Of a stretch of DNA of 64,000 nt, positions 1 through 63,584 are shown piece by piece. The stretch lies in NCBI GenBank assembly GCA_001724275.1, contig MEDZ01000009.1:108543-172542 (forward strand). The letters run 5' to 3'. The notes under the pieces are model-generated. The model was not told where the DNA came from, did not search any database, and saw nothing but the letters and a program-made list of their open reading frames with translations. Position numbers and translations under genes: made by a program. This stretch comes from Gemmatimonadetes bacterium SCN 70-22 (lineage in GTDB: Bacteria > Gemmatimonadota > Gemmatimonadetes > Gemmatimonadales > Gemmatimonadaceae). Every line of letters begins with the position of its first letter. Position 1 is the first letter of the stretch.

Positions 1-147
1 GACGCCGAGCGCCGGCACCAGGAGCTGGCGACCGCGATCCGCCGCGAGGCCTGGGAGCTCCGCTCGGCCAAGGCCGACCGGACCGTCCTCGCGGCGATGT
101 TCGCCGAGTTCGCGCAGCGCCTCGTGGGCGACGGCGAGGCGCGTTAG
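1..147 (+). CDS. 3' end of a gene truncated by the window edge (unknown product)
   Basis: Frame 1 is open from the window edge with GC-rich third positions and ends ..VGDGEAR-TAG at 145-147. It lies 14 nt upstream of the next start. No recognisable domain. Confidence 0.45.
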   Translation, partial: DAERRHQELATAIRREAWELRSAKADRTVLAAMFAEFAQRLVGDGEAR

Positions 148-161
148 GCGCGCGCGGCGCG

Positions 162-1835
162 ATGGCCGACCGCTGGCAGGAGCTGCGGGACCTCCTGGTC
201 GACCCGGAGCGCGAGCGCATCCGGGAGATCGAGCGCAAGCTCGCCAACCCGGCCCTCCACGTCGACGAGGTCGCGCGCGTCCTGCCGGAGGCGATCACTC
301 GCCGCGCGGCGGGGGACGATCGGCTGGGGGCGGCGCTCGGGCCGGTGGTGGGCGAGGCGATTCGCTCGTCGGTGCGCCGCGACCCGCAGCCGCTGGTCGA
401 TGCGATCTTCCCGGTCATGGGACCGGCCATCCGCCGGGCCATCGCCAATGCGCTGGGCGAGCTCGTCCAGTCGCTGAACACCACCCTCGACCACACCTTC
501 TCGCTGCGGGGGCTGGCGTGGCGATGGGAGGCGATGCGCACCGGACGGTCGTTCGGCGAGGTGGTCCTCTCCCACTCGCTGGTCTACCGGGTGGAGCAGC
601 TCTTCGTGATCCACCGCGCGTCGGGGCTCCTGATCGACCATCGCACCGCCCCCGGGGTGCAGGCGCTCTCCCCCGACATGGTCGCCTCGATGATGACGGC
701 GTTGCGTGACTTCGCCCGCGACTCGTTCCACGCGGCGGAGCACGAAGGGCTGGACTCGTTCGCGTTAGGCGACCTGACCGTGTGGGCCGAGAGCGGGCCC
801 GGGGCGGTGCTGGCGGCGGTCATCCGCGGCGAGCCGCCGCGATCGCTGCGCGCCACGCTGCAGCGCGCGCTCGAGGAGGTGCACCTGGCCCATGGCGAGG
901 CGATCGACCGCTTCGCCGAGACGGGCGTCGCCTTCCCCGTGCGCGACGGCGTGCTCGAGCGCTGCCTGGTCACCAAGGCGCAGGAGCGCGCCGCGCGTCC
1001 CGCCGCCTGGCGCCTCTGGGTCGTGGGGGCGCTGGTGCTGGCGGGCGCGGGGTGGTGCGCCGTCCCGCGGGTGCTGGAGCAGCGCCGCTTCGACCGCTAC
1101 CTCGGGGCGCTGCGCCGGGAGCCCGGGGTGGTGATCGCCTCGACGGGACGGGAGCAGGGACGACGCTTCATCGTGGGGCTGCGCGACCCGCTGGCGCGCG
1201 ACCCCGGCGCGATGGCGGCTGCGGCCGGCTTCGACTCCACCCGCCTCGACGCCAAGTGGGAGCCGTACGTGGCGCTCCACCCGGCGTTCGTCGTGGCGCG
1301 CGCGCGGGCACTCCTCGTCCCGCCCCCCGCCACATCCTTGCGGCTGGCGGGCGACACGCTGGTCGCCCAGGGAGTGGCGCCCGCCGCGTGGCGACGGGAG
1401 GCGCAACGCCTCGCCCTCGCCGTTCCCGGAGTCGCGGCGTTGCGCCTGACGGATCTGGCCGACTCGGCCACCGTCGCCCTCCGTGCCGCCGCCGACTCGC
1501 TGGAGGCGGTCACCTTCGACTTCCCGCTCGGGAGCGCCCTCCCGGTCGCGGGCCAGGGGCCCCGCATCGACTCCCTGGCCACGCGCATCCGCGCCTTCCT
1601 CGCCAGCGCCGCGCGCGCCGAGCACGCCGCCACGATCGAACTCGTCGGCTCGGCCGACAGCGTCGGCACCGAGGCCACCAACGCCATCCTCCGCCAGGCC
1701 CGCGCCTCGCGCCTGCGCGCCGCCCTCATCGCCCGCGGGGCCGATCCTCGGTGGCTGGTGGCGACGCCAGACACGAGCGCCCTCGACCGCACCCAACGCA
1801 AGGTGCACCTGCGCATCACGCTCGCGCAGCCGTAG
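162..1835 (+). CDS. Single-pass membrane protein with an N-terminal cytoplasmic Roadblock/LC7-like segment and a C-terminal OmpA-like domain
   Basis: 557-aa ORF. Residues ~140-235 (VYRVEQLFVIHRASGLLIDH..DMVASMMTALRDFARDSF..AVLAAVIRGEPP) look Roadblock-like by eye. TM helix WRLWVVGALVLAGAGWCAV. C-terminal OmpA-type signature ELVGSADSVGTEATNAILRQARASRLRAAL. Confidence 0.85.
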   Translation: MADRWQELRDLLVDPERERIREIERKLANPALHVDEVARVLPEAITRRAAGDDRLGAALGPVVGEAIRSSVRRDPQPLVDAIFPVMGPAIRRAIANALGELVQSLNTTLDHTFSLRGLAWRWEAMRTGRSFGEVVLSHSLVYRVEQLFVIHRASGLLIDHRTAPGVQALSPDMVASMMTALRDFARDSFHAAEHEGLDSFALGDLTVWAESGPGAVLAAVIRGEPPRSLRATLQRALEEVHLAHGEAIDRFAETGVAFPVRDGVLERCLVTKAQERAARPAAWRLWVVGALVLAGAGWCAVPRVLEQRRFDRYLGALRREPGVVIASTGREQGRRFIVGLRDPLARDPGAMAAAAGFDSTRLDAKWEPYVALHPAFVVARARALLVPPPATSLRLAGDTLVAQGVAPAAWRREAQRLALAVPGVAALRLTDLADSATVALRAAADSLEAVTFDFPLGSALPVAGQGPRIDSLATRIRAFLASAARAEHAATIELVGSADSVGTEATNAILRQARASRLRAALIARGADPRWLVATPDTSALDRTQRKVHLRITLAQP

Positions 1836-1874
1836 CTTCGGATTCCCGTCTCCCGTCTCCCGCCCGCCCTCCCC

Positions 1875-3084: not shown

Positions 3085-4248
3085 ATGTCGTTCATCCCTT
3101 TCCTCCGAAGGCACGTCCCGGTGAAGACGATTCGTTCGATGGCCGGCCGCCGCGCCGCTCCCCAGGTGGCGCCGGTGGCGCCGGTGGCGCCGGTGGCGCC
3201 GGTGGCGCGGTTCGCGCGCGCCACGCTGGTCGCGGCGCTTGCTGCCGTGGCGCTCCTCGTCCCTGCATCGACCGCGCGGGCGCAGGGTGCGCTGATCGTC
3301 CTCAACAAGGGTGACGCGCGGGCCTCCATCGTCGACCTCGCGAGCGGGAAGATCGTGAAGACGTACCCCACCGGCGAGGGCCCGCACGAGGTGGCGGTGA
3401 GCCCCGATGGGCGCACGGCGGTGGTGGGGAACTATGGAGGGCAGGCACCGGGGAACTCGCTCACGGTGCTCGACCTCGCCGGGCGTGCCGCCCCGCGCAC
3501 CATCTCGCTCGGCGAGTACCGGCGGCCGCACGGAATCGTCTGGCTGAAGGACGGGCGCCGCGTGCTGGTGACGGTGGAGATGAGCCGCGCGCTCCTCGTG
3601 GTGGACGCGATGGCTGGCGCGGTGGAGCGGGCGATCGCCACCGACCAGCAGGGGACCCACATGGTGGCGCTTGCCCCCGACGAGTCGATGGCGTACACGG
3701 CGAACATCGGATCGGGGAGCGTGAGCCGGATCGACCTGGCGGCCGGGAAGGCGGTGCAGGTGAAGGTGACGGGGAAGGGGCCCGAGGCGATCGACGTTTC
3801 GCCCGACGGGCGCGAGGTCTGGGCGGCCGACCGCACGCTGGACTACATCACGATCATGCGGGCCGGCACGCTGGACTCGTTAGGCTCGGCGCCGACGCGT
3901 CGCTTTCCCAACCGCCTCAAGTTCACCCCCGACGGCCGGCGCGTTCTGGTCTCCAACGCGGCGGCCGGGGCGATCACCGTGTACGACGCCGCCACGCGCG
4001 CGCTCATCAAGGCCATCGAGATCCCCTTCGACCCATCCAGGAAGAAGGCCGAGGTGGTCCTGGGTGACATGGGGAACAGTGCGGTCCCGCTGGGGATCCT
4101 GGTCGAACCCAACGGCCAGCGGGCCTGGGTGGCGACGGCGGCCCTGGGCGAGGTGGTGGAGCTCGACCTGGCGACGCTGTCGGTGCGTCGCACGATCGAC
4201 GCAGGAAACAACCCGGATGGCATGGCCTTCATCGCCCGCCTGCCTTGA
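3085..4248 (+). CDS. Secreted YVTN-type beta-propeller repeat protein
   Basis: Repeated GxGPHEVAVSPDG / IDVSPDGREVW / PDGMAF units and signal peptide ..LLVPASTARAQG. An alternative ATG start lies at 3139. Confidence 0.85.
   Translation: MSFIPFLRRHVPVKTIRSMAGRRAAPQVAPVAPVAPVAPVARFARATLVAALAAVALLVPASTARAQGALIVLNKGDARASIVDLASGKIVKTYPTGEGPHEVAVSPDGRTAVVGNYGGQAPGNSLTVLDLAGRAAPRTISLGEYRRPHGIVWLKDGRRVLVTVEMSRALLVVDAMAGAVERAIATDQQGTHMVALAPDESMAYTANIGSGSVSRIDLAAGKAVQVKVTGKGPEAIDVSPDGREVWAADRTLDYITIMRAGTLDSLGSAPTRRFPNRLKFTPDGRRVLVSNAAAGAITVYDAATRALIKAIEIPFDPSRKKAEVVLGDMGNSAVPLGILVEPNGQRAWVATAALGEVVELDLATLSVRRTIDAGNNPDGMAFIARLP
3165..3209 (+). repeat. 9-bp tandem repeat GGTGGCGCC x5 (last copy imperfect), in frame
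   Basis: Direct reading. It encodes (VAP)n in the n-region of the signal peptide of the YVTN protein. Confidence 0.9.
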
Positions 4249-6390: not shown

Positions 6391-7689
6391 ATGTCGCAGA
6401 CGCCCCCGATCGCCGTGACGACCGCTCGCTACTCCACTCGCCTCGTCGCGTCCCTGGCCGCCCTGGCCCTGCCGCTCACGGCGCAGCAACCGATCGCGAT
6501 TCCTCGTGAGCACGCCGCCGTGAAGGGGGCGCTCGAGGCCATCCAGCGCGACAACGCCTGGACGCTCGAACAGCAGGTCTCCATCTGCGAGATTCCCGCC
6601 CCGCCGTTCAAGGAGGAGAAGCGCGGCCTCGAGATGAAGCGTCGCTTCGAGGCACTCGGGCTCAAGGTCACCATCGACTCGATCGGCAACGTGATCGCCG
6701 AGCGCAAGGGGAGTGGAAACGGCCCCACGGTGGCCATCGCGGGGCACCTCGACACCGTCTTCCCCGAGGGGACCGACGTGACGGTCAAGAAGGACGGGAC
6801 GAAGCTCACCGCTCCCGGCATCGGGGACGACTGCCGGGGGCTCGCCACCGTGCTCGCCGTCGCCCGTGCCATGCAGCACGCGAAGATCCAGACGCCGGGG
6901 ACGATCCTCTTCATCGCCAACGTCGGCGAGGAAGGGCCGGGGAACCTGCGCGGGATGCGCTATCTCTTCCGCAAGCCGCCGCAGAAGATCGACTTCTTCA
7001 TCTCGGTCGACGGGACGGGACTCGGCCTCACCACGGGCGCCGTGGGGAGCCAGCGCTACCTGGTGCAGTACCAGGGCCCGGGCGGGCACAGCTACGGCGC
7101 CTTCGGAATGGCCAACCCCATCCACGCCATGGGGCGCGCGATCGCCAAGGTCGCGGAATTCCAGGTCCCGGCCTCGCCGCGCACCACCTTCAATGTCGGG
7201 ATCGTCTCGGGCGGGACCTCGGTGAACACCATCTCGCCGTTAGGCGCGATGGAGGTCGACATGCGCTCCGAGTCGCCCGAGGAGCTGGCCAAGCTCGATG
7301 CCAAGCTGAAAGCGGCGCTGGCGGCGGCGCTTCGCGAAGAGAACGCGCGCTGGCCCAACGCGCGCGACACCGTCGCGCTCAAGATCACCGACATGGGGAT
7401 CCGCCCGGCGGCGCAGGTGAACGATTCGTCGTACATCGCCCGCACCGCACTCGCGGCGGGCAAGGCGCTTGGCTTCACCGCCCCCACCGGCGCCTCCAGC
7501 ACCGACGCCAACATCCCGATGAGCCTGGGGATTCCGGCCATCACCATCGACGGCGGAGGCATCGGCCGCGGTGCGCACTCCATCACCGAGTCGTACGACG
7601 ATGGGGCGGAGGGTTACAAGGGGCCGCAGTGGGCGCTCCTCATCGTGAGTGCGCTGGCGGGAGTCGGGCGGGTGTCGTACACGCCATAG
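6391..7689 (+). CDS. M20-family metallopeptidase (secreted)
   Basis: IAGHLDTVFPEG and GIGDDCRGLA metal-binding motifs plus a signal peptide. The ORF is open from 6352; the ATG at 6391 is preferred. Confidence 0.8.
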   Translation: MSQTPPIAVTTARYSTRLVASLAALALPLTAQQPIAIPREHAAVKGALEAIQRDNAWTLEQQVSICEIPAPPFKEEKRGLEMKRRFEALGLKVTIDSIGNVIAERKGSGNGPTVAIAGHLDTVFPEGTDVTVKKDGTKLTAPGIGDDCRGLATVLAVARAMQHAKIQTPGTILFIANVGEEGPGNLRGMRYLFRKPPQKIDFFISVDGTGLGLTTGAVGSQRYLVQYQGPGGHSYGAFGMANPIHAMGRAIAKVAEFQVPASPRTTFNVGIVSGGTSVNTISPLGAMEVDMRSESPEELAKLDAKLKAALAAALREENARWPNARDTVALKITDMGIRPAAQVNDSSYIARTALAAGKALGFTAPTGASSTDANIPMSLGIPAITIDGGGIGRGAHSITESYDDGAEGYKGPQWALLIVSALAGVGRVSYTP

Positions 7690-8777: not shown

Positions 8778-10418
8778 ATGACGCGTCGTCCCTCCCGCGT
8801 GCTCGCCGCCCTTGCCGCCGGCGCCGCCGCCCTCGCCCCCGTCGTCGCCCCCGCGCAGCAGCGGCCGGCCGGAGCTGCAACGCAGCCCGCCGCCGTCATC
8901 ACCCGCCAGTTCGGCGACCTGGGCGCCGGTCCGTACAAGTCGCTCGTCATCCGCAATGCCATGGTGATCCCCGGGCACGGCGGTCCGCCCGCCGGCCCGT
9001 ACGACATCATGATCGAGGGGAACATGATCACGCAGATGGTCCCCTTCGACCCGGTCGCCGCCGAGCGGCGCGGGGCGGGCTCGCGGATGACGGGTGACCG
9101 CATCATCGAGGCCGAGGGGAAGTACGTGATGCCGGGGATGATCGACCTCCACACGCACATCCGCACCCTCCCCGAGGAGATCGAGTACGTCTACTACCTG
9201 AAGCTGGCGATGGGCGTCACCACCATGGTGAACGCCGCCGATCGCGGCTACGCCAACGGCATGGAAGAGGCGAAGAAGAGCGCCGCCAACGAGATCATCG
9301 CCCCGCGCATGTTCCCGCTGGTGAGCTACGGTGCCGGGACCAGCTTCAAGGGGCGGCAGCTCGATGACCCGGCGATGGCGTCCCAGGTGGTGAAGGCCAT
9401 GGCCGCCAACGGCAACCGGGTCATCTCGATGGACCCGTTAGGCTGGTCGCTCGACCTCGTGGCCGCCATCGCCAAGGCGGCGAAGGAGAACGGGATGATC
9501 ACCTCGTTCCACCTGCAGCCGTCCAACACCGCCGTCACGCAGGCGGTGAAGGCGGCGTGCGCCGGCGTCACGATGATCGAGCACCATTACGGCTACGCCG
9601 AGTCGGCGCTGGACAACAAGACGCAGGACTTCCCGCGCACCTACAACTACGGCAACGAGAACGACCGCTTCCGCGAGGCGGGAAAGGTGTGGACGTACAC
9701 CAACAAGGAGCGCCTGCTCAACGAGGTGGCCGACACGCTCGTGAAGTGCGGCGTCACGATGCTCCCCACGCGCGTGGTGTACGAGGCCAATCGCGACGTC
9801 ATCCGCGCCACGTCGCTCCCGTGGACCGACAAGTACACCCACCAGGCGCTGTGGAACTGGAACCTCCCCAACCCCGCCTACCACGGCTCGTTCCACTATG
9901 ACTGGACGAGCGACGACGAGTACTACTGGACGACCGCGTTCCGCCTGTGGGGCGACCTGATCTACGAGTTCAACAAGCGCGGCGGGCGCGTGGCGTTCGG
10001 CACCGACGACAACTACATCTGGGCCACCCCGGGCTTCTCGTCCGTCCGCGAGCTGCAACTCCAGCGCGAGACGGGGATGCACGGGCTCGAGGTGATCAAG
10101 ACCGCCACCCTGAACTCGGCGCAGACGCTGGGCGAGCCGCAGCTGGGGCTCGTGCGACCCGGCTACAAGGCCGACCTCCTGATCGTCGACGGCAACCCGG
10201 CCGCCAACCTCAAGTACCTCTACTCGTTCGGTGACCTGGCCCTCGACAAGGACGGGAAGATGATCCGCACGAAGGGGATCGTGCACACCATCAAGGACGG
10301 CGTGGTGCTGAACAACGCCCGCCTCATGGAAGAGGTCGAGAAGATGGTGCAGGCGTCGCGCAAGCTCGCCCCGGCGGTCGACGTGATGCGCGATCCGTTC
10401 CGTGTCGGCAAGCCGTAA
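8778..10418 (+). CDS. Secreted amidohydrolase-family metal-dependent hydrolase
   Basis: Signal peptide MTRRPSRVLAALAAGAAALAPVVAPAQQ, HxH motif MPGMIDLHTHI, C-terminal GTDDNY. The upstream part of the 826-aa ORF is Arg/Pro-rich off-gene read-through. Confidence 0.85.
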   Translation: MTRRPSRVLAALAAGAAALAPVVAPAQQRPAGAATQPAAVITRQFGDLGAGPYKSLVIRNAMVIPGHGGPPAGPYDIMIEGNMITQMVPFDPVAAERRGAGSRMTGDRIIEAEGKYVMPGMIDLHTHIRTLPEEIEYVYYLKLAMGVTTMVNAADRGYANGMEEAKKSAANEIIAPRMFPLVSYGAGTSFKGRQLDDPAMASQVVKAMAANGNRVISMDPLGWSLDLVAAIAKAAKENGMITSFHLQPSNTAVTQAVKAACAGVTMIEHHYGYAESALDNKTQDFPRTYNYGNENDRFREAGKVWTYTNKERLLNEVADTLVKCGVTMLPTRVVYEANRDVIRATSLPWTDKYTHQALWNWNLPNPAYHGSFHYDWTSDDEYYWTTAFRLWGDLIYEFNKRGGRVAFGTDDNYIWATPGFSSVRELQLQRETGMHGLEVIKTATLNSAQTLGEPQLGLVRPGYKADLLIVDGNPAANLKYLYSFGDLALDKDGKMIRTKGIVHTIKDGVVLNNARLMEEVEKMVQASRKLAPAVDVMRDPFRVGKP

Positions 10419-12714: not shown

Positions 12715-14700
12715 TTACGGGAGGGCGAAGGCGCGCAGCGCCGTCCCGGCCCCCGCACCGGTGGCGATCACCACGAACTGCCGGCCGGCACGCGTTCGGT
12801 AGGTCATGGGATTGGCATAGCCCACGGTCCCCAGCGCGTGCGACCAGCGGACGCTCCCGTCGCGGGTGTCGATGGCGTACAGCGTGCTCCCGCCCCCCGT
12901 GAGGAAGAGGAGCCCGCCGCGCGTCACGACCCCACCCGGCGCGCCGGCCACGCCTAACGCCGGCGGCAGCGGGACCCCCCGCAGCGCCGGGTGATGGCGC
13001 ACCGCGGGAGAGTCGCCGATCGGCACCTGCCAGCGGTGCTCGCCGGTGGCCATGTCGATCGCGGTCAGGACGCCGTACGGTGGCTTGTTGATCGGGAGGG
13101 GCGGGACGGGCTTCCCGGCCGAGTCCCGCTCGAAGCCCGGGACCACCACGCCTAACGACGGGGCGTCGGGGTCGGTGAAGAAGTCGCTGTCGTTCGTGTC
13201 CGAGGGTGTGGGGCGCCGCGCGAGCTTCCAGAGCGCCGGGGCATTGGTCGCCTTGACGTACAGCACGTTCGTCTCGGGATCGTACGCCCCCCCTCCCCAG
13301 CCGGCGCCGCCGATCGCCCCCGGGCTGGTCACGGTCCCCTCCAGCGACGGCGGGGTGAAGAGCGGGCCGAATCGGAACGTCCGCAGCTTGGCGAGGGCGG
13401 CGGCCTTCACGGCCGGCGTGAAGTCGATGACGTCCTGCTCCCCGAACCCCTGCGCCGCGAGCGGAGCCGGCCTGGCGGGGAACGGCTGCGTCGGCCACGC
13501 CGCTTCCCCGGGCACGTCGCTCGGCGGGACGGGGCGTTCCTCGATGGGCCAGAGTGGCGCCCCCGTGACGCGGTCGAACGCGAAGATCCACCCCTGCTTG
13601 GTCGGGACGAGCACGGCATCCACGCGGCTCGCGCCACGCCGGATGGTCACCACGTTAGGCGGGGCGGGGAGGTCGTAGTCCCACAAGCCGTGATGGACCA
13701 GCTGGTGATGCCAGAGGCGCGTCCCCGTGCGGGCGTCGAGCGCCACGATCGCTTCCCCGAAGAGGTTCGCCCCGCGGCGGCGTCCGCCGTACCAGTCGTT
13801 GGACGGCGTCCCCACCGGGAGGTACACGATCCCGCGCGCCGAGTCGACCGTGAACGGCGCCCAGACGTTCGTGTGCCCGGTGTAGCGCCAGGAATCGCCG
13901 TCCCATGTCTCGTTCCCCACCTCCCCGGGGTGCGGCACGGTGCGGAAGGCCCAGACGCGCCTCCCCGTGCGCACATCGAACGCCTGCACGTCGCCCGGGG
14001 GATCACCCTTGTAGGCCAGGCGGTCGCCGACCCCGTTCCCCAGGATCACCAGGTCGCCCCACACCACCGGCGGCGACGTGTTGGTGTAGTGCCGGCGATT
14101 CACCGGGCGGTCGAGCTGTGCGGTGAGGTCCACCTCGCCGTTGGCGCCGAAGGAGGGAATCGGCTTCCCCGTCGACGCATCGAGGGCGATGAGCCGCCAG
14201 CGCGAGTTGATGAAGATGCGGCGCTGCCGGCCGTCGCTCCACGCCGCCACTCCGCGGTGCACCAGCCCCGTCCCGTTGGAGGGCTGTCCGGCGCGATAGG
14301 CACCGGGGTCGTAGCGCCAGTACTCGCGCCCGGTGTTGGCGTCGAGCGCCACGACGACGTTGAGCGGGGTGGGGAGGTACAGCGTGTCGCCGATCATGAG
14401 CGGCGTCGCCTGGAAGTTCCCCGGTCGCGCCGGCCGCCCCGAATCGGCGGGAGGCGACGCGGGGTCGCCGGTGTCCCAGCGCCACGCGGGAGCGAGCTGC
14501 GCGACGTTGTCGCGATTGATGTCGGCGAGGGGCGAGTACTTCATCCCGCCGGCATCGCCGCCGTACGCGGGCCACTCGACCATCGGGCCAGCCCCCCGCC
14601 TCCCCTGCTGGGCGGAGGCCCCGCCAGGGGCAACGCCCAGCACCAGCACGCCCGTGAGGGCGAGCGAGGCCGCCCCCCGGGAGCGGAGCGGCCCGGTCAT
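12715..14700 (-). CDS. Periplasmic PQQ-dependent dehydrogenase (quinoprotein beta-propeller)
   Basis: Signal peptide, N-terminal WPAYGGDAGGMKYSPL signature, and repeated W-containing propeller blades over 661 aa. Confidence 0.8.
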   Translation of the reverse strand: MTGPLRSRGAASLALTGVLVLGVAPGGASAQQGRRGAGPMVEWPAYGGDAGGMKYSPLADINRDNVAQLAPAWRWDTGDPASPPADSGRPARPGNFQATPLMIGDTLYLPTPLNVVVALDANTGREYWRYDPGAYRAGQPSNGTGLVHRGVAAWSDGRQRRIFINSRWRLIALDASTGKPIPSFGANGEVDLTAQLDRPVNRRHYTNTSPPVVWGDLVILGNGVGDRLAYKGDPPGDVQAFDVRTGRRVWAFRTVPHPGEVGNETWDGDSWRYTGHTNVWAPFTVDSARGIVYLPVGTPSNDWYGGRRRGANLFGEAIVALDARTGTRLWHHQLVHHGLWDYDLPAPPNVVTIRRGASRVDAVLVPTKQGWIFAFDRVTGAPLWPIEERPVPPSDVPGEAAWPTQPFPARPAPLAAQGFGEQDVIDFTPAVKAAALAKLRTFRFGPLFTPPSLEGTVTSPGAIGGAGWGGGAYDPETNVLYVKATNAPALWKLARRPTPSDTNDSDFFTDPDAPSLGVVVPGFERDSAGKPVPPLPINKPPYGVLTAIDMATGEHRWQVPIGDSPAVRHHPALRGVPLPPALGVAGAPGGVVTRGGLLFLTGGGSTLYAIDTRDGSVRWSHALGTVGYANPMTYRTRAGRQFVVIATGAGAGTALRAFALP

Positions 14701-18516: not shown

Positions 18517-18550
18517 GCATCGGCGCGGCGGGCGCGGGGCGCCCGCGCCC

Positions 18551-41897: not shown

Positions 41898-41900
41898 GCC

Positions 41901-46647: not shown

Positions 46648-49233
46648 ATGGTGAAGTCCATGTGGATGGTTCGTTGGGAACGCCGGGGGCGTCGGGCGCG
46701 GCGCGCGTGCGGCGCCTTCGTGGCGGTGTCGCTGCTGGGGATTGCGGCTGGCGACGCCGGGGCGCAGGTCACGGTCGACCGGTGGCTGGTGCTGGGGCCC
46801 GTCCCGGCCACGCTCCCCTTCGCCAGCGCCACCTCCGATTCCGCGGCGCTTGGCGCGCTGCGGCTGCGCCCCGATGCGGGGTGGCCGTCGGAGGGGCGCA
46901 GCGTGCCGCTCCCGGCGGGTGCGCCGCTGCGCTGGACGGCGGGCAATGCCGCGCTGGCGCGCGGGACGCTGGCCTATGCGGTGGCGTACGTCACCAGCGA
47001 CCGCTGGCAGCGGGTGACGCTGGGCACGCCCGCGGGAAGCGCCGAGCTGCCACGGGTCTGGATCGACGGCGCACGGGTGACCGGGGCGCAGGTGACGCTG
47101 GCGCGCGGCACACACGTCGTCATGGTGGAGCGCGTGGCGCGCTCGGCGGGGGCGGAGGCGCTGGCCCTGGCGCTGACGCCGGTTGCGCCTGGCGGATCGC
47201 TCGCGGCATCGCTCGACCCGCGCCACGCCCCGAGCTGGCGCGAACTCCACGCCATGGCGTCCATCGCCGGCGTGGCCCTCGATCCCACGGCCACCCGCGT
47301 CGCCGTGTCGATGCGTGCGCGCGACCTCGCGGCGGATCGCGCCAACGGCTGGATGGAAGTGCGCGAGGTGGCGAGCGGCCGCGTGCTGGCCGAGCTGCGC
47401 AGCGGCTCCCCCACCTCGCCGGCGTGGTCGCGCGACGGCCGGCGGCTGGCCGTGCTCACCGCCGCCGATCGCCCCGACACGCCCGGCCGCGACCTCTGGC
47501 TCTGGGACGCCACGACCATGTCGGCCACGCAGCTCCTGCGCGGCGAGCCGATGACACGTCTCGTGGGATGGTCGCCCGACGGCGAGTGGATCTACTACCT
47601 CGGGACGGAGCGCCCGGCGGCGTCCGCCCCGCCGACGCCGGGCGAGATGACGCGCCTCACCGAGGTGTGGCAGCGCGGCGACGACTCCCCCTACCGCACG
47701 CAGCTGTACGCCGTGAGCGCCTCGCAGGGAATCCGGACGACGCTGGTGGGGGACTCGGCGGTCGGCGTGGCGGGAGCGGCGCTCTCCCCCGACGGCCGCA
47801 CCATCGCCTTCACGCGCTCGGTGAACACGAATGCCGGGCGCCCGTGGCTGCGCGCCGAGCTGTGGACGCTCGACGTCGCGACGCTGGCCACGCGACGCCT
47901 CCTCGACCTCACGCGCGAGGCCTTCAGTGCCCCGGCGACCCTGGCCTGGTCGCCCGACTCGAAGGCGCTCGCCTTCTGCGCCAGTGCCAAGGAGCTCGTG
48001 GAGCGCGAGGACCCGTCGTTCAGCGTGTACGAGAACGAGCTGTACGCGACGTCGCTCGAACGCCCGGCGCTCGTGCACCTCAGCGAAGGATTCGTCCCGT
48101 CGGTAGGGGCAGGGCTGGGGTGCTCGGAGGTGGTGTGGAGCGCGCGGGACGGGCGGATCCTCGTCCCGGTGGACGCGGGGGCGCGGACGCTCCTGGCCAG
48201 GACGAAGGCACCGGTGCCGTCGTCGGTGGCGAAGACCACGCTGGAGCTCGTCCCGCTTCCCGGCGAGACCATGTCGGCGTTCGACGTGGCCGCGGGGACG
48301 GTCGTGGCGGCGGTGGAGGGGCCGGTGACGCCCCCGGCGCTGCAGCGGATCGACCTGGCGACGGGGCGCGCGATGACGCTCGCCGCGCCTAACGCCGACG
48401 CCGTCGCGCCACTCGCCCTCCCGACCTGGCGTCCGTGGTCGTTCCGCAACTCGCGCGGCGAGGAGATCGAGGGATGGTACTGGCTCCCGCCGGCCTTCGA
48501 CTCCACGGCGCGCTACCCGATGATCGTGCACTACTACGGCGGGACGCTCCCCATGAAGAAGGAGTTCGAGGCGCGGCTCCTCTGGTTCGCGGCCAACGGC
48601 TACGTGGTGCTGATGACGAACCCCGCCGGGGCCCCGGGCTACGGGCAGGCGTTCTCCAACCATCACGCCAACGACTGGGGGTTTCCCGCCGCCAGCGACA
48701 TCATCGAGGGGACGCAGCAGTTCCTGCAACAGCACCGCTTCGTGGACGCCGCCCGGGTGGGGAATTTCGGCCACTCGTACGGCGGCTTCATGACGATGCA
48801 CCTGCACACGCGCACCACCCTGTTCCGTACCGGGATCTCGCTGGCCGGGATCTCGAACATCGCCAACTACTGGGGGGCGGGGAACTCCGGCTACAGCTAC
48901 ACCGACGGGACGTGCCCCGGGTGCTACCCGTGGAACCGGAAGGACGTGTTCGTCGATCGTTCCCCGCTCTTTGCCGCCGACCAGGTGCGTTCGCCGCTCC
49001 TGCTCATGCACGGCACCGGCGACACCAACGTCGTCCCGACCGAGTCGGAGCAGATGTTCACCGCGCTGCGCATGCTGGGGCGCGAGGTGGAGCTGGTGCG
49101 CGTGGCGGGCGAGAACCACGGGATCAACTCCCGTCCTTCGGTCGAGAGGGGACGCGACGGCGCGATGCTCGACTGGTTCGACAAGTACCTGCGCGACCGC
49201 CCCGAGGCGTGGAGCGCGCGCTGGAGCCGCTGA
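46648..49233 (+). CDS. S9-family prolyl-oligopeptidase / acylaminoacyl-peptidase-like serine peptidase with an N-terminal extra domain and a TolB-like propeller
   Basis: Signal peptide, repeated SPDG / WSPDG propeller blades, nucleophile GNFGHSYGGFMT, and later MHGTGDTNV and ENHG. Confidence 0.85.
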   Translation: MVKSMWMVRWERRGRRARRACGAFVAVSLLGIAAGDAGAQVTVDRWLVLGPVPATLPFASATSDSAALGALRLRPDAGWPSEGRSVPLPAGAPLRWTAGNAALARGTLAYAVAYVTSDRWQRVTLGTPAGSAELPRVWIDGARVTGAQVTLARGTHVVMVERVARSAGAEALALALTPVAPGGSLAASLDPRHAPSWRELHAMASIAGVALDPTATRVAVSMRARDLAADRANGWMEVREVASGRVLAELRSGSPTSPAWSRDGRRLAVLTAADRPDTPGRDLWLWDATTMSATQLLRGEPMTRLVGWSPDGEWIYYLGTERPAASAPPTPGEMTRLTEVWQRGDDSPYRTQLYAVSASQGIRTTLVGDSAVGVAGAALSPDGRTIAFTRSVNTNAGRPWLRAELWTLDVATLATRRLLDLTREAFSAPATLAWSPDSKALAFCASAKELVEREDPSFSVYENELYATSLERPALVHLSEGFVPSVGAGLGCSEVVWSARDGRILVPVDAGARTLLARTKAPVPSSVAKTTLELVPLPGETMSAFDVAAGTVVAAVEGPVTPPALQRIDLATGRAMTLAAPNADAVAPLALPTWRPWSFRNSRGEEIEGWYWLPPAFDSTARYPMIVHYYGGTLPMKKEFEARLLWFAANGYVVLMTNPAGAPGYGQAFSNHHANDWGFPAASDIIEGTQQFLQQHRFVDAARVGNFGHSYGGFMTMHLHTRTTLFRTGISLAGISNIANYWGAGNSGYSYTDGTCPGCYPWNRKDVFVDRSPLFAADQVRSPLLLMHGTGDTNVVPTESEQMFTALRMLGREVELVRVAGENHGINSRPSVERGRDGAMLDWFDKYLRDRPEAWSARWSR

Positions 49234-49298: not shown

Positions 49299-51653
49299 GT
49301 GACGACTGCACCAATCCATCGCCTGGCGGCGCCCCTGATGGCGCTGGCCATGCTCCCCGTCATCGCTGCGCCGGTCCAGGCGCAGGGGACCCGCGCGGAC
49401 TATGCGCGGGCCGAGCAGCTCCTGCCGTGGAACGCGACCGAGCTGGTGACCAACGACGCGGTGCGCCCGCGCTGGATGAGCGGCGACCGATTCTGGTTCC
49501 GCAACCGCGCGGCGAAGGGGTGGGAGTTCGTGGTCGTCGAGATGGCGACCGGGACGCGGCGCCCCGCCTTCGACCATGCGCGCCTCGCGGCCGCGCTGTC
49601 GCAGGCGGCCGACACGTCGTACGACGCGGGCAAGCTCCCCTTCACCCAGTTCACCTGGGTCGACGGCGAGAAGGCGATCCGCTTCGCCGTGTCCAAGGGG
49701 AAGTCCTGGACGTGCGACGTCACGACGTACGCCTGCACCGGCCCCGATACGACGGCGGTCGACAAGGCGAGCGAGGTGAGGTCGCCCGACGGGAAGTGGA
49801 TCGCCACCGAGCGCGCGGGGAACATCTACGTGCGCCCGGCGGGCGGGGGCGAGGAGGTGCAGCTGACGACCGACGGGACGCCCGACTGGGGATACGGGCT
49901 GGCGAACATCGGCTGCTGCCAGCAGGTCACCGTCGTCCGCAACAAGGTCGAGCTGCGTCCCTACGTCCTCTGGTCGCCCGACTCGAGGCGCCTGGTGACC
50001 CACAAGTGGGACCAGCGCAACGTGCGCCTGATGCACCTGCTGGAGACGAAGAATCCCGCCCCGATCCTCCACTCGTATCGTTATGCTCTCCCCGGCGACT
50101 CGGTGATCCCGCGCTACGACCTGTACGTCCTGGACGTGGAGGGACGCCGCGCGGTGAAGCTCGGCGTGCCGGCGATGGACGCGGTCAACACCTCGTGCTG
50201 CTGGCTGGCGACCGATACCGTCTGGAAGGACGTGCGCTGGGCGACGAATGACGCCGTGGCGTTCACGGCGGGGAAGCGCGGCTTCGACGAGCTCTCGCTC
50301 GTCCTGGCCGACGCCCGCAGCGGCACGGCGCGCACGATCCTCACCGAGCGTTCGAAGACGTTCGTGGAGACCAACCAGAACTCGGGGGGCATCCCCAACT
50401 GGCGTCCGGTGGGCGGGGGGCGCGAGTTCGTCTGGTGGTCGGAGCGCGACGGGTGGGGGCACCTGTACCTGGTGGACGGGGCCACCGGGGCGGTGAAGAA
50501 CCGCATCACCGGCGGCGACTGGATGGTGAGCGACCTGGTGTGGGTCGATGAGGTGCAACGGTATGCGTACTTCACCGCGCGCGGGCGCGAGGAGGGGCGC
50601 GACCCGTATTTCCGGCACCTGTACCGCGCCCGCCTCGACGGCTCCGCCGTGGAGCTGCTGACGAAGGAGGACGCCGACCACGAGGTCACCGTTGCGCCTG
50701 GCGGCCGCTACCTCGTGGACGTGGTGGCCCGCCCCGAGCGCCCCCCGGTCTCGCTGCTACGGCGCCTGGACGGGACGGTGGTGAAGGAGATCCAGGCCGC
50801 CGACATCTCGCGCCTGGTGGCGGCGGGCTATCGCCCCCCCGAACCGTTCACCGTGCGCGCCCGCGACGGGGTGACCGAGCTGCGCGGACTCCTCTGGCGC
50901 CCGGCCCGCTTCGACTCGACGAAGTCCTACCCCATCATCGACTACATCTACCCGGGGCCGCAGGTGGGGGCCATCGGACAGCGGCAGTTCGCCTCCCGCC
51001 CCGGCGGCGCGGCCAACGCCCTCGCCGAGCTCGGCTTCTTCGTGGTGCAGGTCGATGCGTTAGGCAGCCCGGGGCGGTCGAAGGCCTTCCACGATGCCTA
51101 CTACGGCAACATGGGCGACAACGGCCTCCCCGACCACATCGCGACCATCAAGCAGCTGGCGGCGCGCCACCCGCAGGTGGACCTGGGGCGCGTCGGGATC
51201 TACGGCCACTCCGGCGGCGGCTTCTCCGGGACCGACGCGATCCTCCGCTACCCCGACTTCTTCAAGGTCGCCGTCTCGTCGGCCGGGAACCACGACAACC
51301 GCAGCTACGACTTCACCTGGGGCGAGAAGTACCAGGGGCTGCGGCGCCAGCTGAGCGACACCGTCGACACCTTCGACTCGCAGTCCAACTGGCGGTTGGC
51401 GAAGAACCTCCAGGGGAAGCTCCTCCTCTCCTACGGGACGCTCGACGACAACGTGCACCCCGTCTCGACGCAGCTCCTCATCGACGAGCTCATCAAGCAC
51501 AACAAGGACTTCGACCTCGTGGTGATGCCCAATCGCAACCACGGCTACGCCGGCGAGGCGTATTGGGTGCGTCGCACCTGGGACTACTTCGTGAAGCACC
51601 TGCTGGGCATCGAGCCGCCGCCCCAGTACGAGCTCAAGCCGCCCACGCCGTAG
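49299..51653 (+). CDS. Second dipeptidyl-peptidase IV-like S9B peptidase (paralog of 44127-46556)
   Basis: The N-terminus YARAEQLLPWNATELV parallels YSRAEQLLNWNTDRLV in the paralog. Nucleophile GIYGHSGGGFSG. GTG start at 49299, with an alternative ATG at 49338. Confidence 0.85.
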   Translation: MTTAPIHRLAAPLMALAMLPVIAAPVQAQGTRADYARAEQLLPWNATELVTNDAVRPRWMSGDRFWFRNRAAKGWEFVVVEMATGTRRPAFDHARLAAALSQAADTSYDAGKLPFTQFTWVDGEKAIRFAVSKGKSWTCDVTTYACTGPDTTAVDKASEVRSPDGKWIATERAGNIYVRPAGGGEEVQLTTDGTPDWGYGLANIGCCQQVTVVRNKVELRPYVLWSPDSRRLVTHKWDQRNVRLMHLLETKNPAPILHSYRYALPGDSVIPRYDLYVLDVEGRRAVKLGVPAMDAVNTSCCWLATDTVWKDVRWATNDAVAFTAGKRGFDELSLVLADARSGTARTILTERSKTFVETNQNSGGIPNWRPVGGGREFVWWSERDGWGHLYLVDGATGAVKNRITGGDWMVSDLVWVDEVQRYAYFTARGREEGRDPYFRHLYRARLDGSAVELLTKEDADHEVTVAPGGRYLVDVVARPERPPVSLLRRLDGTVVKEIQAADISRLVAAGYRPPEPFTVRARDGVTELRGLLWRPARFDSTKSYPIIDYIYPGPQVGAIGQRQFASRPGGAANALAELGFFVVQVDALGSPGRSKAFHDAYYGNMGDNGLPDHIATIKQLAARHPQVDLGRVGIYGHSGGGFSGTDAILRYPDFFKVAVSSAGNHDNRSYDFTWGEKYQGLRRQLSDTVDTFDSQSNWRLAKNLQGKLLLSYGTLDDNVHPVSTQLLIDELIKHNKDFDLVVMPNRNHGYAGEAYWVRRTWDYFVKHLLGIEPPPQYELKPPTP

Positions 51654-51903: not shown

Positions 51904-52854
51904 ATGCTCCTGCGCACTCCCGACGCCCTCCCCATCGCCCCATCCGAGATCACCAGCGAGTCGCACTACGAGAACCGCCGGCAATTCCTCAAGGACGCGG
52001 GGCTCCTCGGCCTCGGGATCGCCGGAATGGCGCTCGCCTCACGCGACGCGCGGGCGCAACCGCCGCAGCAGGGGACGAGCATCGGCGGCGCGGAGCTCAA
52101 GCCCGAGCTCACGCCATGGGAGGACGTGACCGGCTACAACAACTTCTACGAGTTCGGGACCGACAAGAGCGACCCGGCCGACCACGCGCAGAAGTTCCGC
52201 ACCAAGCCGTGGAGCGTGGCGGTCGAGGGGCTCGTCGCCAAGCCGGGGCGCTACGCGCTCGAGGACTTCCTCAAGCCGCACAAGCTCGAGGACCGGATCT
52301 ACCGCCACCGCTGCGTCGAGGCCTGGTCCATGGTGATCCCGTGGCTCGGCTTCCCGATGGCCGACTTCATCAAGCGCGTGCAGCCGTTAGGCTCGGCGAA
52401 ATACGTGGAGTTCACCACGCTGCTCGACCCCAAGCAGATGCCGGGGCAGCGCTCGCCCATCCTCGACTGGCCGTACGTCGAGGCGTTGCGCCTGGACGAG
52501 GCGATGCACCCGCTCACGATCTTCGCCGTCGGAGTCTACGGGAAGATGCTCCCCAACCAGAACGGGGCGCCGCTCCGTCACGTCGTCCCGTGGAAGTACG
52601 GCTTCAAGAGCTGCAAGTCGATCGTGAAGATCCGCTTCACGGAAACGATGCCGAAGACGGCGTGGAACGTGGCCAACCCGGGCGAGTACGGCTTCTACGC
52701 CAACGTGAATCCCACGGTCGACCACCCGCGCTGGTCGCAGGCCAAGGAACGGCGCATCGGCGAGTTCCGGCGGCGCGACACGCTGATGTTCAACGGGTAT
52801 GCGCAGCAGGTGGCGTCGCTGTACGGCGGGATGGACCTGCGGAAGTTCTACTGA
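51904..52854 (+). CDS. msrP: Protein-methionine-sulfoxide reductase catalytic subunit MsrP (YedY-type molybdoenzyme)
   Basis: TAT signal [38 protein letters not shown] and the PWKYGFKS signatures are typical of YedY/MsrP. Confidence 0.9.
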
Positions 52855-53648: not shown

Positions 53649-53680
53649 TTGACAGATTCGACGTGCTAATACGTATTAGC
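53649..53680 (+). promoter_or_regulatory. Candidate promoter -35 (TTGACA, 53649-53654) plus a 16-bp perfect palindrome GCTAATACGTATTAGC (53665-53680), a putative LacI-family operator
   Basis: Direct reading. The palindrome sits where a -10 element would fall and ends 7 nt upstream of the proposed GTG start of the LacI-family gene. Confidence 0.5.
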
Positions 53681-53686
53681 GCGCCT

Positions 53687-58051: not shown

Positions 58052-59568
58052 TGGCGCCGACCCTCGATGCCCTGCTCCAGGGAGGGGCGCTCGCGCTGCC
58101 GGCGCAGCCGACGATCGTCGCCGTCGCGCTGGTCTACTTCGCGATCGTCGCCGGGATCGGCGTCTGGGCCGCGCGCCGGACGCACAGCGCGAGCGACTTC
58201 TTCGTGGCCGGGCAGGGGATCGGCCTCTGGACGATGGCGATCGCGGCGATGGCCGCGACGCTGTCCGGCTTCGCCTTCATCGGCGGTCCGGGGCTGGTGT
58301 ACACGCTGGGGCTGGGCGCGGTCTTCATCATCCTCCCCATCGGCGTGACCGGTACGTTAGGCGCGTGGACCATGGCCAAGCGCGTCCGGCTGCTCGGGGA
58401 GCTGCGCGGGCTCATCACCGTCCCCGATGCCATCGACGCGCGCTTCGACTCCCGACTGGCCCGCGGGCTCTCGGCGGTGGCGATGCTGGTGGCGATCGTC
58501 GGCTACATGGCGACCAACATCCTGGCGCTCGGCCTGGTGATCGACGCGATCTTCGGCACCGGGCTCACGGCGGGGCTGTGGATCGGGATGGCGATCACGC
58601 TGGCGTACTCGGTGTCGGGGGGGATCCTGGCGGGCGTGTACACCGACCTCTTCCAGGGGGGGGTGATGGCGGCCGCGTCGGTCCTGGTCTTCGTGTACAC
58701 GCTCAAGGTGGGCGGGGGGGAAGCGGGCTTCGCCGCGACGATCCTCCCTGCCGATGCCCCCTTCCTGGCCCCCTGGGGGAAGATGACCCCGCTTGCCGCG
58801 CTCTCGTTCTTCTTCGTCTTCGGGATCGGGTCGTTAGGGCAGCCGCACGTGGTGCACAAGTTCTACATGCTGCGCGACCCGCGGAAGCTCAAGTGGTACC
58901 CGCTGATCATGGGATGGGCGATCGTGATCAGCCAGCTCCTCTTCATCGGGGTCGGGCTGGCGGTCAAGGCGTTGGTGGTGCGCGGGGAGATCGCCCCGCT
59001 GGCCCGGGCGGACGACGCCACGCCGACGTTCCTGCTCGGCTTCACGCCGCTGCTGCTGTCGGCGGTGGTCTTTGCCGGCGTCGCGGCGGCCATCATGAGC
59101 ACCGTGAACTCGTTCATGAGCGTCGGCGCTGCCGCCCTCACGCACGACCTCCCGCTGGCCCTCGGGCGGCGGGTGCGGAACGAGCTGTTCTGGGGGCGGG
59201 TGTCGACGGTGGCCATTTCGCTGGCCGCCACCGTGGTGGCCAGCCTCTCGGGGACGCTCGTCGCCTTCCTCGGGATCTTCGGCTGGGGATTGTTTGCCTC
59301 GACGCTCGTCCCGTCGCTGGCCATCGGGCTCAACTGGGCCGGGGCGACGCGCGCCGGCGCGATCGCCTCCATCGCCACGGGGCTGGTGGTGACGCTGGTG
59401 TTCGAGACGCTGGCCTACCTCAAGGTCTTCACCTTCCCGGCCGGGGTGACCGCCACTGCCCTGGCCCTGGTGAGTTCGCTCCTGGTCTTCTTCGCGGTCT
59501 CGTGGCTCACGCGCGACTCCGCGGCGGCCACGCTCGCCGACGACATTCGCTTCGTGATGGACACATGA
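58051..59568 (+). CDS. Sodium:solute symporter (SSF) family transporter
   Basis: About 13 TM helices and the N-terminal signature ..ASDFFVAGQGIGLWTMAIAAMAATLSGFAFIGGPG.. Confidence 0.85.
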   Translation: MAPTLDALLQGGALALPAQPTIVAVALVYFAIVAGIGVWAARRTHSASDFFVAGQGIGLWTMAIAAMAATLSGFAFIGGPGLVYTLGLGAVFIILPIGVTGTLGAWTMAKRVRLLGELRGLITVPDAIDARFDSRLARGLSAVAMLVAIVGYMATNILALGLVIDAIFGTGLTAGLWIGMAITLAYSVSGGILAGVYTDLFQGGVMAAASVLVFVYTLKVGGGEAGFAATILPADAPFLAPWGKMTPLAALSFFFVFGIGSLGQPHVVHKFYMLRDPRKLKWYPLIMGWAIVISQLLFIGVGLAVKALVVRGEIAPLARADDATPTFLLGFTPLLLSAVVFAGVAAAIMSTVNSFMSVGAAALTHDLPLALGRRVRNELFWGRVSTVAISLAATVVASLSGTLVAFLGIFGWGLFASTLVPSLAIGLNWAGATRAGAIASIATGLVVTLVFETLAYLKVFTFPAGVTATALALVSSLLVFFAVSWLTRDSAAATLADDIRFVMDT

Positions 59569-62565: not shown

Positions 62566-62569
62566 GACG

Positions 62570-63577
62570 ATGGCCAACGCGATGCTCCTGGCGGCCGCGG
62601 CCGGGGCGCTCGGCGCCCCGCCGCGGGCACGTGCCTCGGGCAGCGCCGGGATCGGCGCATCGCCCCCGGCGAACGGCCGGGTGATCCGGGGAACCTACAG
62701 GAATGCAGCAGGCGAGCGGCCGTACGTGCTCCACGTCCCGGACGGCAGCGCCGCGGCCGGGCGGCGAGGGCTCGTCGTGATGCTCCATGGGTGCACGCAG
62801 GACGCCGACGACATCGCCCGGGGCACGCGCCTGCACGAGGCGGCGGCGCGGAAGGGGTGGCTCGTGCTGTACCCGGAGCAGCCGGTGGCGCACAACCCCA
62901 AGCGATGCTGGAACTGGTTCGACCCCGCGCATCAGGGGCGCGATGCCGGGGAGCCGTCGATCATCGCCGGGCTCACGTCGCAGGTGGTGGCCGACCACCA
63001 GGTCGATCCGCACCGCGTGTACCTGGCGGGGTTGTCGGCAGGAGCCGCGATGGCGGCGCTGGTGGCGGCGGCCTACCCCGAGCGGTACGCCGCGCTGGCG
63101 CTGCATTCCGGCCTGGTGTACGGGGGGGCACACGCGGCGATGGCGGCGGTGGGGGTGATGCAGCGCGGCGTGGCGAGCCCCGAACCGTACGCGGAGTCGG
63201 CCCACCGGGCGATGGGAGGGCGTTCGCGGGTGATCCCCACGCTCGTCATCCACGGCGAGGCGGATGCCGTCGTGGCGCCGATCAACGGTGCGCAGGCGGC
63301 GCGACAGTGGTTCCTGACCAATGCCCTCGCGATGGGGCAGCCGCTCGATACCACGAGCGGGGCGACCGATCGCTCGGAGCGCGAGGAGGGGGGATACCTG
63401 GTGCGCCGGTCGACGTATCGGGCGAAGGACGGGACCCCGCTGTCGCAGCTCGTCATGGTGCGCGGGCTGGGGCATGCGTGGTCTGGTGGGGCGCCCGAGG
63501 GGAGCTTCACGGATCCGCGCGGCCCCGCCGCCACGGCGATGATCCTCGACTTCTTCGCCTCGTCGGGCAGGCGTTAG
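62570..63577 (+). CDS. PHB-depolymerase-family esterase (LpqC-like)
   Basis: VVMLHGCTQDADD..LVLYPEQ..CWNWF..RVYLAGLSAGAAMA..HSGL matches the polyhydroxybutyrate-depolymerase esterase family signature. Confidence 0.8.
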   Translation: MANAMLLAAAAGALGAPPRARASGSAGIGASPPANGRVIRGTYRNAAGERPYVLHVPDGSAAAGRRGLVVMLHGCTQDADDIARGTRLHEAAARKGWLVLYPEQPVAHNPKRCWNWFDPAHQGRDAGEPSIIAGLTSQVVADHQVDPHRVYLAGLSAGAAMAALVAAAYPERYAALALHSGLVYGGAHAAMAAVGVMQRGVASPEPYAESAHRAMGGRSRVIPTLVIHGEADAVVAPINGAQAARQWFLTNALAMGQPLDTTSGATDRSEREEGGYLVRRSTYRAKDGTPLSQLVMVRGLGHAWSGGAPEGSFTDPRGPAATAMILDFFASSGRR

Positions 63578-63584
63578 GCGCGTC

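Follow-up and report, generated by a model that had tools for sequence, protein, structure and literature searches.

The window analysed here, a stretch of 64,000 nucleotides from Gemmatimonadetes bacterium SCN 70-22 of the Gemmatimonadaceae (contig MEDZ01000009.1, positions 108,543 to 172,542), has a G+C content of 71%, encodes peptidases, TonB/SusC-SusD-like receptors and a pyrroloquinoline quinone (PQQ) dehydrogenase, and holds no tRNA genes. Dispersed through it are 20 exact copies, 12 on the plus strand and 8 on the minus strand, of the 8-mer CGTTAGGC (Table 1), a word whose reverse complement is GCCTAACG and which is therefore asymmetric and non-palindromic. Dinucleotide-preserving shuffles of the window contained 0.98 copies on average and never more than 5. 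A first-pass annotation, made by a model from the DNA letters and a list of open reading frames (ORFs), had drawn attention to the word; the coordinates and strands it gave for the 20 copies are all correct, and the excess it suspected is real. Maximal-order Markov scoring of k-mers was blind to the word, as the shorter words inside it are just as enriched, and it took models of lower order and a comparison with relatives to bring it out.

As had been claimed for the window, nothing is conserved beyond the eight bases, and the same holds in related loci and in plasmid 1 of Gemmatirosa kalamazoonensis (see below). TTAGG outside the exact copies is confined to near-copies, again as described: 20 of the 23 such pentamers lie in the word and the rest are at 7904, 33765 and 58834. 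The accompanying list of one-mismatch copies had to be corrected, since its entry at 7902 (GCTTAGGC) carries two mismatches, and extended, since there are 37 sites with one mismatch, most of them GC-richer variants no more frequent than chance allows (57 hits with no more than one mismatch, against 44 expected).

Genes were called with a codon-usage model trained on the window itself. Thirteen of the 15 TTA codons in these genes have the form xCG-TTA-GGC, or 14 of 16 once a missed minus-strand gene at 27586 is counted. The two TTA codons outside the word, at 37085 and 58834, are the same two that the first-pass annotation had named, and its assignment of the copies to frames (14 sense xCG-TTA-GGC, 3 antisense G-CCT-AAC-G and 3 CGT-TAG) also stands, with the stops at 147 and 63577 closing well-supported genes and the ORF that ends at 18516 showing a weak coding signal. 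Stop codons of the 53 called genes are TGA in 27 cases, TAG in 20 and TAA in 6; so much TAG (20/53) is unusual in a genome of 71% GC, and the word explains only part of it.

Table 1. Exact copies of CGTTAGGC in the window, with the frame in which each is read and the gene concerned (GC1/2/3, GC fraction at the three codon positions)
Position	Strand	Reading	Gene or context
142..149	+	CGT-TAG stop	gene entering from upstream; frame GC1/2/3 0.80/0.51/0.98
763..770	+	sense GCG-TTA-GGC	gene 162-1835
3878..3885	+	sense TCG-TTA-GGC	beta-propeller/lactonase-like gene 3085-4248
7238..7245	+	sense CCG-TTA-GGC	M20 peptidase gene 6391-7689
9436..9443	+	sense CCG-TTA-GGC	amidohydrolase gene 8799-10418
12952..12959	-	sense GCG-TTA-GGC	PQQ dehydrogenase gene 12715-14700 (-)
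13150..13157	-	sense TCG-TTA-GGC	PQQ dehydrogenase gene 12715-14700 (-)
13653..13660	+	antisense; gene reads G-CCT-AAC-G (Pro-Asn)	PQQ dehydrogenase gene 12715-14700 (-)
15450..15457	-	sense TCG-TTA-GGC	amidohydrolase gene 14697-15905 (-)
17810..17817	-	sense GCG-TTA-GGC	M15 peptidase-like gene 16817-17926 (-)
18511..18518	+	CGT-TAG stop	weak ORF 17962-18516; may be intergenic
27586..27593	-	sense TCG-TTA-GGC	minus-strand gene ~27230-27900; GC1/2/3 0.78/0.48/0.95, no stops
27963..27970	-	sense ACG-TTA-GGC	gene 27924-28979 (-)
30686..30693	-	antisense; gene reads Pro-Asn	TonB-dependent receptor gene 29544-31574 (+)
37278..37285	+	sense GCG-TTA-GGC	gene 35186-37447
48387..48394	-	antisense; gene reads Pro-Asn	S9 peptidase gene 46720-49233 (+)
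51058..51065	+	sense GCG-TTA-GGC	DPP-IV/S9 peptidase gene 49338-51653
52385..52392	+	sense CCG-TTA-GGC	molybdopterin oxidoreductase gene 51904-52854
58355..58362	+	sense ACG-TTA-GGC	sodium:solute symporter gene 58051-59568
63572..63579	+	CGT-TAG stop	esterase gene 62570-63577

Lineage distribution of the word

The PQQ dehydrogenase of the window, which represents a wastewater or bioreactor species, occurs with identical protein sequence on more than 20 contigs of independent assemblies, among them GCA_035325725.1, GCA_045863255.1 and contigs of MEGAHIT and SPAdes style. In six loci that are more than 99% identical (L001-L006), nine of nine word positions are kept, a comparison without power at the strain level but one by which the word is no artefact of assembly or base calling. 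The nearest species-level relatives are Gemmatimonadaceae genomes assembled from metagenomes, and we surveyed 80 loci around homologues of the PQQ dehydrogenase. Word density proved to be all or none: 11 Gemmatimonadaceae loci (12 by the tally that leaves 68 others) carry 0.27-1.34 copies/kb, and all other loci, from Gemmatimonadota, Acidobacteriota and Proteobacteria, many of them just as GC-rich, carry no more than 0.05/kb. Pooled, this amounts to 110 copies in 227 kb from 12 Gemmatimonadaceae genomes compared with 4 in 944 kb of other GC-rich relatives. On the gene tree of the PQQ dehydrogenase the word-rich loci form one clade of seven, one of three and two singletons, a scatter that probably reflects paralogy, so that monophyly of the hosts is not established. 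The densest occurrence of the word, 1.1-1.3/kb, was seen in two Gemmatimonadaceae loci of GC 0.61-0.64 (L010 and L011), in each of which CGTTAGGT is a frequent second form with 6 copies; this hints that species differ in their tolerance at position 8. We also considered whether word-poor relatives use dispersed words of their own, as "dialects", and rejected the idea: the abundant 8-mers there are local tandem or inverted arrays.

The word is equally prominent in a cultured type strain, G. kalamazoonensis KBS708. Plasmid 1 of this strain (NZ_CP007129.1; 1,106,233 bp; its PLSDB record lacks gene annotation) contains 778 copies, 404 on the plus and 374 on the minus strand, against 15-39 expected under Markov models of order 0-3. 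The first 50 kb of plasmid 2 hold 20 copies. Positions 1-106,000 of plasmid 1 consist of a 53,060-bp tandem duplication in which word positions recur at that offset; the duplication matches the collapsed repeat of the genome announcement and slightly inflates raw word counts. The hits listed by a literature search for the 8-mer were primers only, with none about a genomic word.

Frames, proteins, strands and spacing

Several features of the copies support the conclusion that pressure acts on the DNA word itself, regardless of strand, frame or coding status. Of 110 copies in the window and related loci, 55 are sense xCG-TTA-GGC, 19 antisense G-CCT-AAC-G, 9 sense C-GTT-AGG-C and 8 antisense GC-CTA-ACG, and the others supply CGT-TAG stops (6) or a GCC-TAA stop (1) or are intergenic (12). 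The corresponding numbers for the 778 copies of plasmid 1 are 307, 180, 21 and 22, with 41 CGT-TAG stops, 47 GCC-TAA stops and 160 intergenic copies. Expressed as occupancy of peptide-compatible sites, plasmid 1 has the word at 24.5% of [ASPT]LG, 55% of PN[VADEG], 26% of Arg-stop and 30% of Ala-stop sites, and the window with its relatives at 25%, 45%, 18% and 25%, respectively. Sense copies are in excess because Leu-Gly is far commoner than Pro-Asn; the 17:3 sense bias pointed out in the first-pass annotation is therefore right as a count, but it is a by-product of peptide abundance rather than a signal at the level of the transcript. The core of the accompanying proposal, that of pressure on the DNA word and not on codon or peptide, is supported by copies in all frames and both orientations, at stops and in spacers, with similar sense and antisense occupancy. 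Intergenic DNA of plasmid 1 is in fact denser in the word (1.04/kb) than genic DNA (0.65/kb). Specificity is graded, the GTTAGG core being strict and the edge positions softer: among plasmid 1 copies beyond the integron region, the first base is C in 673 cases, T in 72, A in 18 and G in only 15, and T is tolerated at position 8 of CGTTAGGC in some species.

These figures bear directly on control of translation by TTA codons, or recognition of a motif in mRNA, which would account for the 14 of 20 window copies that place TTA in frame and for the finding that 79% of plasmid 1 TTA codons fall in the word. However, counted per available site, copies that are antisense, out of frame, at stop codons or between genes occur at least as often, and on plasmid 1 the word likewise explains 40% of the CCT codons and 61% of the TAA stops. 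Unlike bldA-type TTA regulation, then, the effect of CGTTAGGC is not tied to an in-frame TTA codon, and we regard control of this kind, which the first-pass annotation had listed, as hardly credible.

The word has also altered amino-acid sequences. Ortholog comparisons between word-rich species, which the first-pass annotation had proposed as a means of separating conservation of the word from conservation of the peptide, came out as follows: the word was shared in 120, the peptide was the same with different DNA in 67, and the peptide differed in 307, with PIG, SIG and YLG as typical partners of word-bearing PLG, SLG and ALG. Moreover, Leu-Gly occurs at 1.06-1.13 times its expected frequency in word-rich proteomes versus 0.86 in word-poor relatives, and Pro-Asn at 1.6 times on plasmid 1 versus 1.0 (and at ~1.0 in the window and related loci), with the reversed dipeptides unchanged. 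It is from this dipeptide excess together with the differing ortholog peptides that we conclude that the word changed proteins.

With regard to replication, cumulative GC skew, a weak signal on plasmid 1, places the origin at around 1.0 Mb and the terminus at around 0.33 Mb. Leading-strand copies number 413 of 778 (53.1%), compared with 53.5% of coding bases, and genes on the two strands are equally occupied (for [ASPT]LG, 24.7% leading and 24.3% lagging; for PN, 53% and 57%). Individual loci of 12-22 kb carry both orientations in equal numbers, as in L011 with 9 and 9. A Chi site, acting as a RecBCD/AddAB recombination hotspot (GCTGGTGG), or an FtsK-orienting polar sequence (KOPS; GGGNAGGG) would resemble CGTTAGGC, which occurs about once per 1-3 kb, in being a short, asymmetric, over-represented oligomer read on chromosomal DNA. 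Such elements are co-oriented with replication and modestly enriched, whereas CGTTAGGC is non-polar over a complete replicon, balanced between strands within single loci, and hyper-abundant. Enrichment of 20- to 150-fold and use of the rarest codons are likewise unlike known Chi sites. Among the analogues offered by the first-pass annotation, only the pattern of DNA uptake sequences fits; the Chi and FtsK-orienting readings are very improbable, and the replichore orientation that might have supported them is not seen on plasmid 1.

We assessed spacing on plasmid 1 by redealing copies among peptide-compatible sites and intergenic positions, with the integron and one copy of the 53-kb duplicate excluded. 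The observed coefficient of variation was 0.848, as against 1.005 +/- 0.037 in simulations, none of 1000 of which was as low; spacings below 500 bp numbered 131 instead of 198 +/- 10, and gaps above 4 kb 33 instead of 45 +/- 4.5. Copies of CGTTAGGC thus avoid one another. Even spacing is predicted by a benefit of one copy per segment and contradicts a site-independent mutational or repair bias, under which random spacing would be expected. Such a bias, whether context-specific mutation or mismatch repair of the very-short-patch type, would suit a lineage-specific word found in all sequence classes, and 5-methylcytosine (m5C) is not excluded by SMRT (single-molecule real-time) sequencing. Yet deriving TTA from CTG or CTC takes two changes, none of the one-off variants shows the depletion of a source (those at the edges are in excess instead), and the AT core of the word opposes the GC bias of the genome. 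We therefore consider the bias that the first-pass annotation had entertained quite improbable, and it is, with the Chi/KOPS and the TTA or RNA-level readings, largely contradicted.

The word is sparse in particular parts of plasmid 1, namely insertions of low GC and the inner parts of ORFs in integron cassettes. Its longest word-free stretches include a low-GC insertion, present twice through the 53-kb tandem duplication, and pairs of large genes. Two such pairs (177375-182005 and 305194-309781) are SusC/SusD-like by size and lower GC alone, and in the window a TonB-dependent receptor and SusD-like gene pair (38982-43223) with GC below its surroundings has no copy of CGTTAGGC; these pairs may have been acquired recently, or may be of a composition unfavourable to the word.

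Other repeats were seen along the way. At 115802, 202010, 454806 and 472778 of plasmid 1, intergenic inverted arrays built of tandem units of 7-9 bp (such as a run of CGTGGCTG followed by its complement) have CGTTAGGC exactly at their centre of symmetry; inverted arrays of 7-9 bp units also lie at L015 2324-2480, L021 7121-7220 and L037 3286-3350, and word-poor relatives have related arrays made of other units. In the window, a 34-bp tandem repeat (37455-37569; 3.4 copies, 96% matches) separates convergent genes, and each unit holds CGGTTAGCGG on the minus strand, which contains TTAG but not CGTTAGGC. A second 8-mer, AGGGGACC, is in mild excess in the window (10 copies versus 3.2 expected, at 3650, 4590, 6767, 9038, 11093, 13333, 15144, 24294, 49384 and 60836), and 8-mers overlapping it stand out in relatives too (GGGGACCA in L008). 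An AT-rich stretch at ~53560-53690 with the palindrome CTAATACGTATTAG, directly upstream of a gene starting near 53687, may be an operator or promoter region.

Identity with the integron core site

In integrons, strand exchange takes place at a core site of the form GTTRRRY (PMC8876359). The last seven bases of CGTTAGGC, GTTAGGC, are a member of this family, so that the word and its complement match the R' (GTTRRRY) and R'' (RYYYAAC) boxes exactly over seven bases (GTTAGGC / GCCTAAC), and the leading C is the usual 5' base of R'. The first-pass annotation was silent on this identity. Chance-match odds are 16/65,536 8-mers for the 7-mer and 2/65,536 for the full 8-mer; a chance match is unlikely even allowing for the many motifs that are known.

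Plasmid 1 carries a large sedentary integron at ~796,000-857,800 (loci L102-L104), with an array of ~60 kb and GC ~0.70. Between ~796 and 853 kb many intergenic copies of the word terminate conserved arms of ~30 nt, and the array contains 12 exact inverse-core/core pairs ~90-120 bp apart. As single-stranded DNA (ssDNA) these pairs fold into attC hairpins (z-scores -4 to -10) with an R box, an unpaired spacer, an L box with an extrahelical base and a variable loop. The intI gene stands beside the array (856827-857786, minus strand; TIGR02249, 423 bits versus a cutoff of 265), and the integrase points toward it, so that its transcription may run the same way as that of the cassettes. Every one of the array's 70 R boxes is the full 8-mer, on both arms, which suggests that the host-wide pressure acts on attC sites too. 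The interiors of the cassette ORFs are nearly word-free. In 80 environmental integron loci gathered with the Gemmatirosa integrase (54-65% identity), R' is GTTAGGC, preceded by C in ~27/37 by hand count, and R'' is followed by G in only ~5/22. By sequence comparison, the genome-wide 8-mer is the R' consensus of this integron family.

Integrons are nonetheless not sufficient for the genome-wide word, since integrons with the same R box reside in hosts whose ordinary genes flanking intI are word-free (L120, L158, L170, L192, L194 and the Gemmatimonadaceae metagenome-assembled genome L191). Dispersed copies have no partner R box, L box or hairpin: attC-like hairpins were found only in the Gemmatirosa array and not in the window or in word-rich metagenome-assembled loci, and no integrase was among 20 window proteins scanned against Pfam. 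The one-off spectrum of plasmid 1 at first seemed to show a GTTRRRY-like degeneracy, which vanished once the integron region was excluded, leaving only exact GTTAGGC enriched.

These observations frame the possibility that the word is a genome-wide site of integron type, at which isolated R' boxes are bound by IntI, or by a tyrosine recombinase akin to it, and serve as cassette landing pads (attG-like), as material from which further attC sites and cassettes are built, or as sinks through which the integrase is controlled. The membership of GTTAGGC in GTTRRRY, the R' consensus of the environmental integrons and the 70 of 70 R boxes beside intI all speak for such a role, as does the placing of approximately a quarter to a third of compatible stop codons inside the word, given that cassette stop codons often lie within the R'' box. 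Nevertheless, attC and attI sites are paired with an L box, form a bulged hairpin and lie near intI, whereas dispersed copies are solitary in ordinary genes and hence are not recombination sites as now defined. The word-free flanks of other hosts of the same R box, the enrichment of exact GTTAGGC and not of the GTTRRRY family, and the lack of cassette-like asymmetry (words at gene ends are equal in both orientations) also count against it, and we know of no mechanism that would give each isolated R box a strong advantage of its own. We consider a site of this type unlikely, though to be taken seriously.

A candidate self tag and its meaning

CGTTAGGC is a clade-specific word at the level of DNA, strand-independent, 20- to 150-fold enriched and evenly spaced, that overrides codon bias and alters proteins. 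Its overall density is about one copy per 0.7-3 kb, imposed where the protein permits and sometimes where it does not. The explanation we favour, tentatively and at a probability of roughly 0.4, is that it may be a lineage-specific, orientation-independent self tag spread by transmission bias, of the kind represented by the DNA uptake sequence (DUS; GCCGTCTGAA) of the Neisseriaceae and the uptake signal sequence (USS; AAGTGCGGT) of the Pasteurellaceae. Those are short, asymmetric, clade-bound words found at ~0.3-1.3/kb on both strands of coding and non-coding DNA, with graded tolerance at some positions, a proteome imprint and spacing more even than random. CGTTAGGC is alike in all these respects, and its hyper-abundance and absence of replication polarity also agree with a tag of the DUS/USS kind. 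It differs in belonging to the Gemmatimonadota, in being identical to the integron core site, and in lacking flanking AT tracts and terminator-forming inverted pairs. Among the plasmid 1 pairs listed at 60 bp or less there are three close -/+ pairs, and none is terminator-like.

In such a process, tagged DNA would be preferentially taken up by competent cells and homologous replacement would follow, a molecular drive by which one-off sites that mutate into CGTTAGGC would be over-transmitted. Each segment of DNA would be rewarded for at least one copy and a second copy nearby would be worthless, a redundancy that matches the even spacing. A transmission advantage per segment is inferred because ordinary selection could not maintain thousands of redundant sites one by one against mutation and the cost in codon usage; biased uptake with homologous replacement, as in DUS and USS, is the known example of a process that can. 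The identity with R' suggests that the reader of the word might be tuned to, or derived from, integron-site recognition.

Several points weigh against an uptake tag. Natural competence, biased uptake and an uptake receptor are not on record for Gemmatimonadota in the literature we searched, where no paper pairs 'Gemmatimonad' with 'uptake sequence'. A plain uptake model does not predict exact identity with the integron core site. The polarity test leans on the weakly skewed origin and terminus of a megaplasmid, not a chromosome, and occupancy drops only mildly in compositionally atypical genes (19% versus 33%). Finally, abundance, symmetry, even spacing and proteome imprint are shared with the highly iterated palindrome HIP1 (GCGATCGC) of cyanobacteria, a word whose mechanism is itself unsettled.

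To our knowledge, HIP1 has gone unexplained for 30 years. It is an 8-mer that occurs in all gene frames, is conserved within its clade in 15- to 300-fold excess with quasi-regular spacing, and is of debated mechanism (PMC5861425, PMC4390886). Another orientation-independent function of this sort, such as a binding site for a protein of the nucleoid or of DNA repair, or a mark of self, free of polarity, for a recombination nuclease, maintained by ordinary selection, would suit the strand symmetry and even spacing of CGTTAGGC, as would any function exercised per segment of DNA. However, selection per site would be very weak over thousands of redundant sites, yet codon usage and amino acids are overridden. 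HIP1, moreover, is palindromic and methylated by dedicated methyltransferases. CGTTAGGC is non-palindromic and matches none of the three motifs, RGATCY, ATGCAC and CCAGN7TCA, of the KBS708 SMRT methylome, which is N6-methyladenine (m6A) only (PMC3974934); the methylation check put forward in the first-pass annotation turned up no m6A or N4-methylcytosine (m4C) motif that matches the word, in data from a method that does not read m5C. HIP1-like and integron-linked functions rank level with one another, and below the uptake tag. A recent link between HIP1, the closest 8-mer analogue, and transformation (bioRxiv 10.1101/2024.09.10.611283) counts in favour of the uptake tag.

The uptake reading and the integron reading may belong together. 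In the literature, integrons are listed as present in Gemmatimonadota and no more is said; in Vibrio, ssDNA acquired by transformation feeds chromosomal integrons (PMC12614218), and the origin of cassettes is an acknowledged outstanding question (PMC8618304). It is conceivable, if rather doubtful and less probable than either of the two functions just ranked, that one lineage of Gemmatimonadaceae has turned the integron R' into a self or uptake tag used throughout the genome. A system of competence or recombination that is tuned to C-GTTAGGC would then preferentially import or process DNA with integron cassettes, and by drive would have written the word about once per kb into host genes. If true, natural transformation would be coupled to cassette capture, and ready-made R boxes would be available on both strands for new attC sites and cassettes.

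CGTTAGGC belongs among the hyper-abundant, lineage-specific genomic words and is unusual among them in its asymmetry and its coincidence with the integron core site. We know of uptake-type self tags established in only two proteobacterial families. A third hyper-abundant word, independent of these and of HIP1, would therefore be useful. CGTTAGGC is found in a poorly studied soil phylum, and it explains otherwise odd codon statistics, being the source of most TTA codons, of many CCT codons and of many TAA stops. It marks DNA of the clade in metagenomes. The word-rich KBS708 is a cultured, fully sequenced type strain, which opens the phenomenon to direct testing, and the unexpected identity with the core site bears on the birth of cassettes and attC sites (PMC8618304) and on transformation as a process that feeds chromosomal integrons (PMC12614218).

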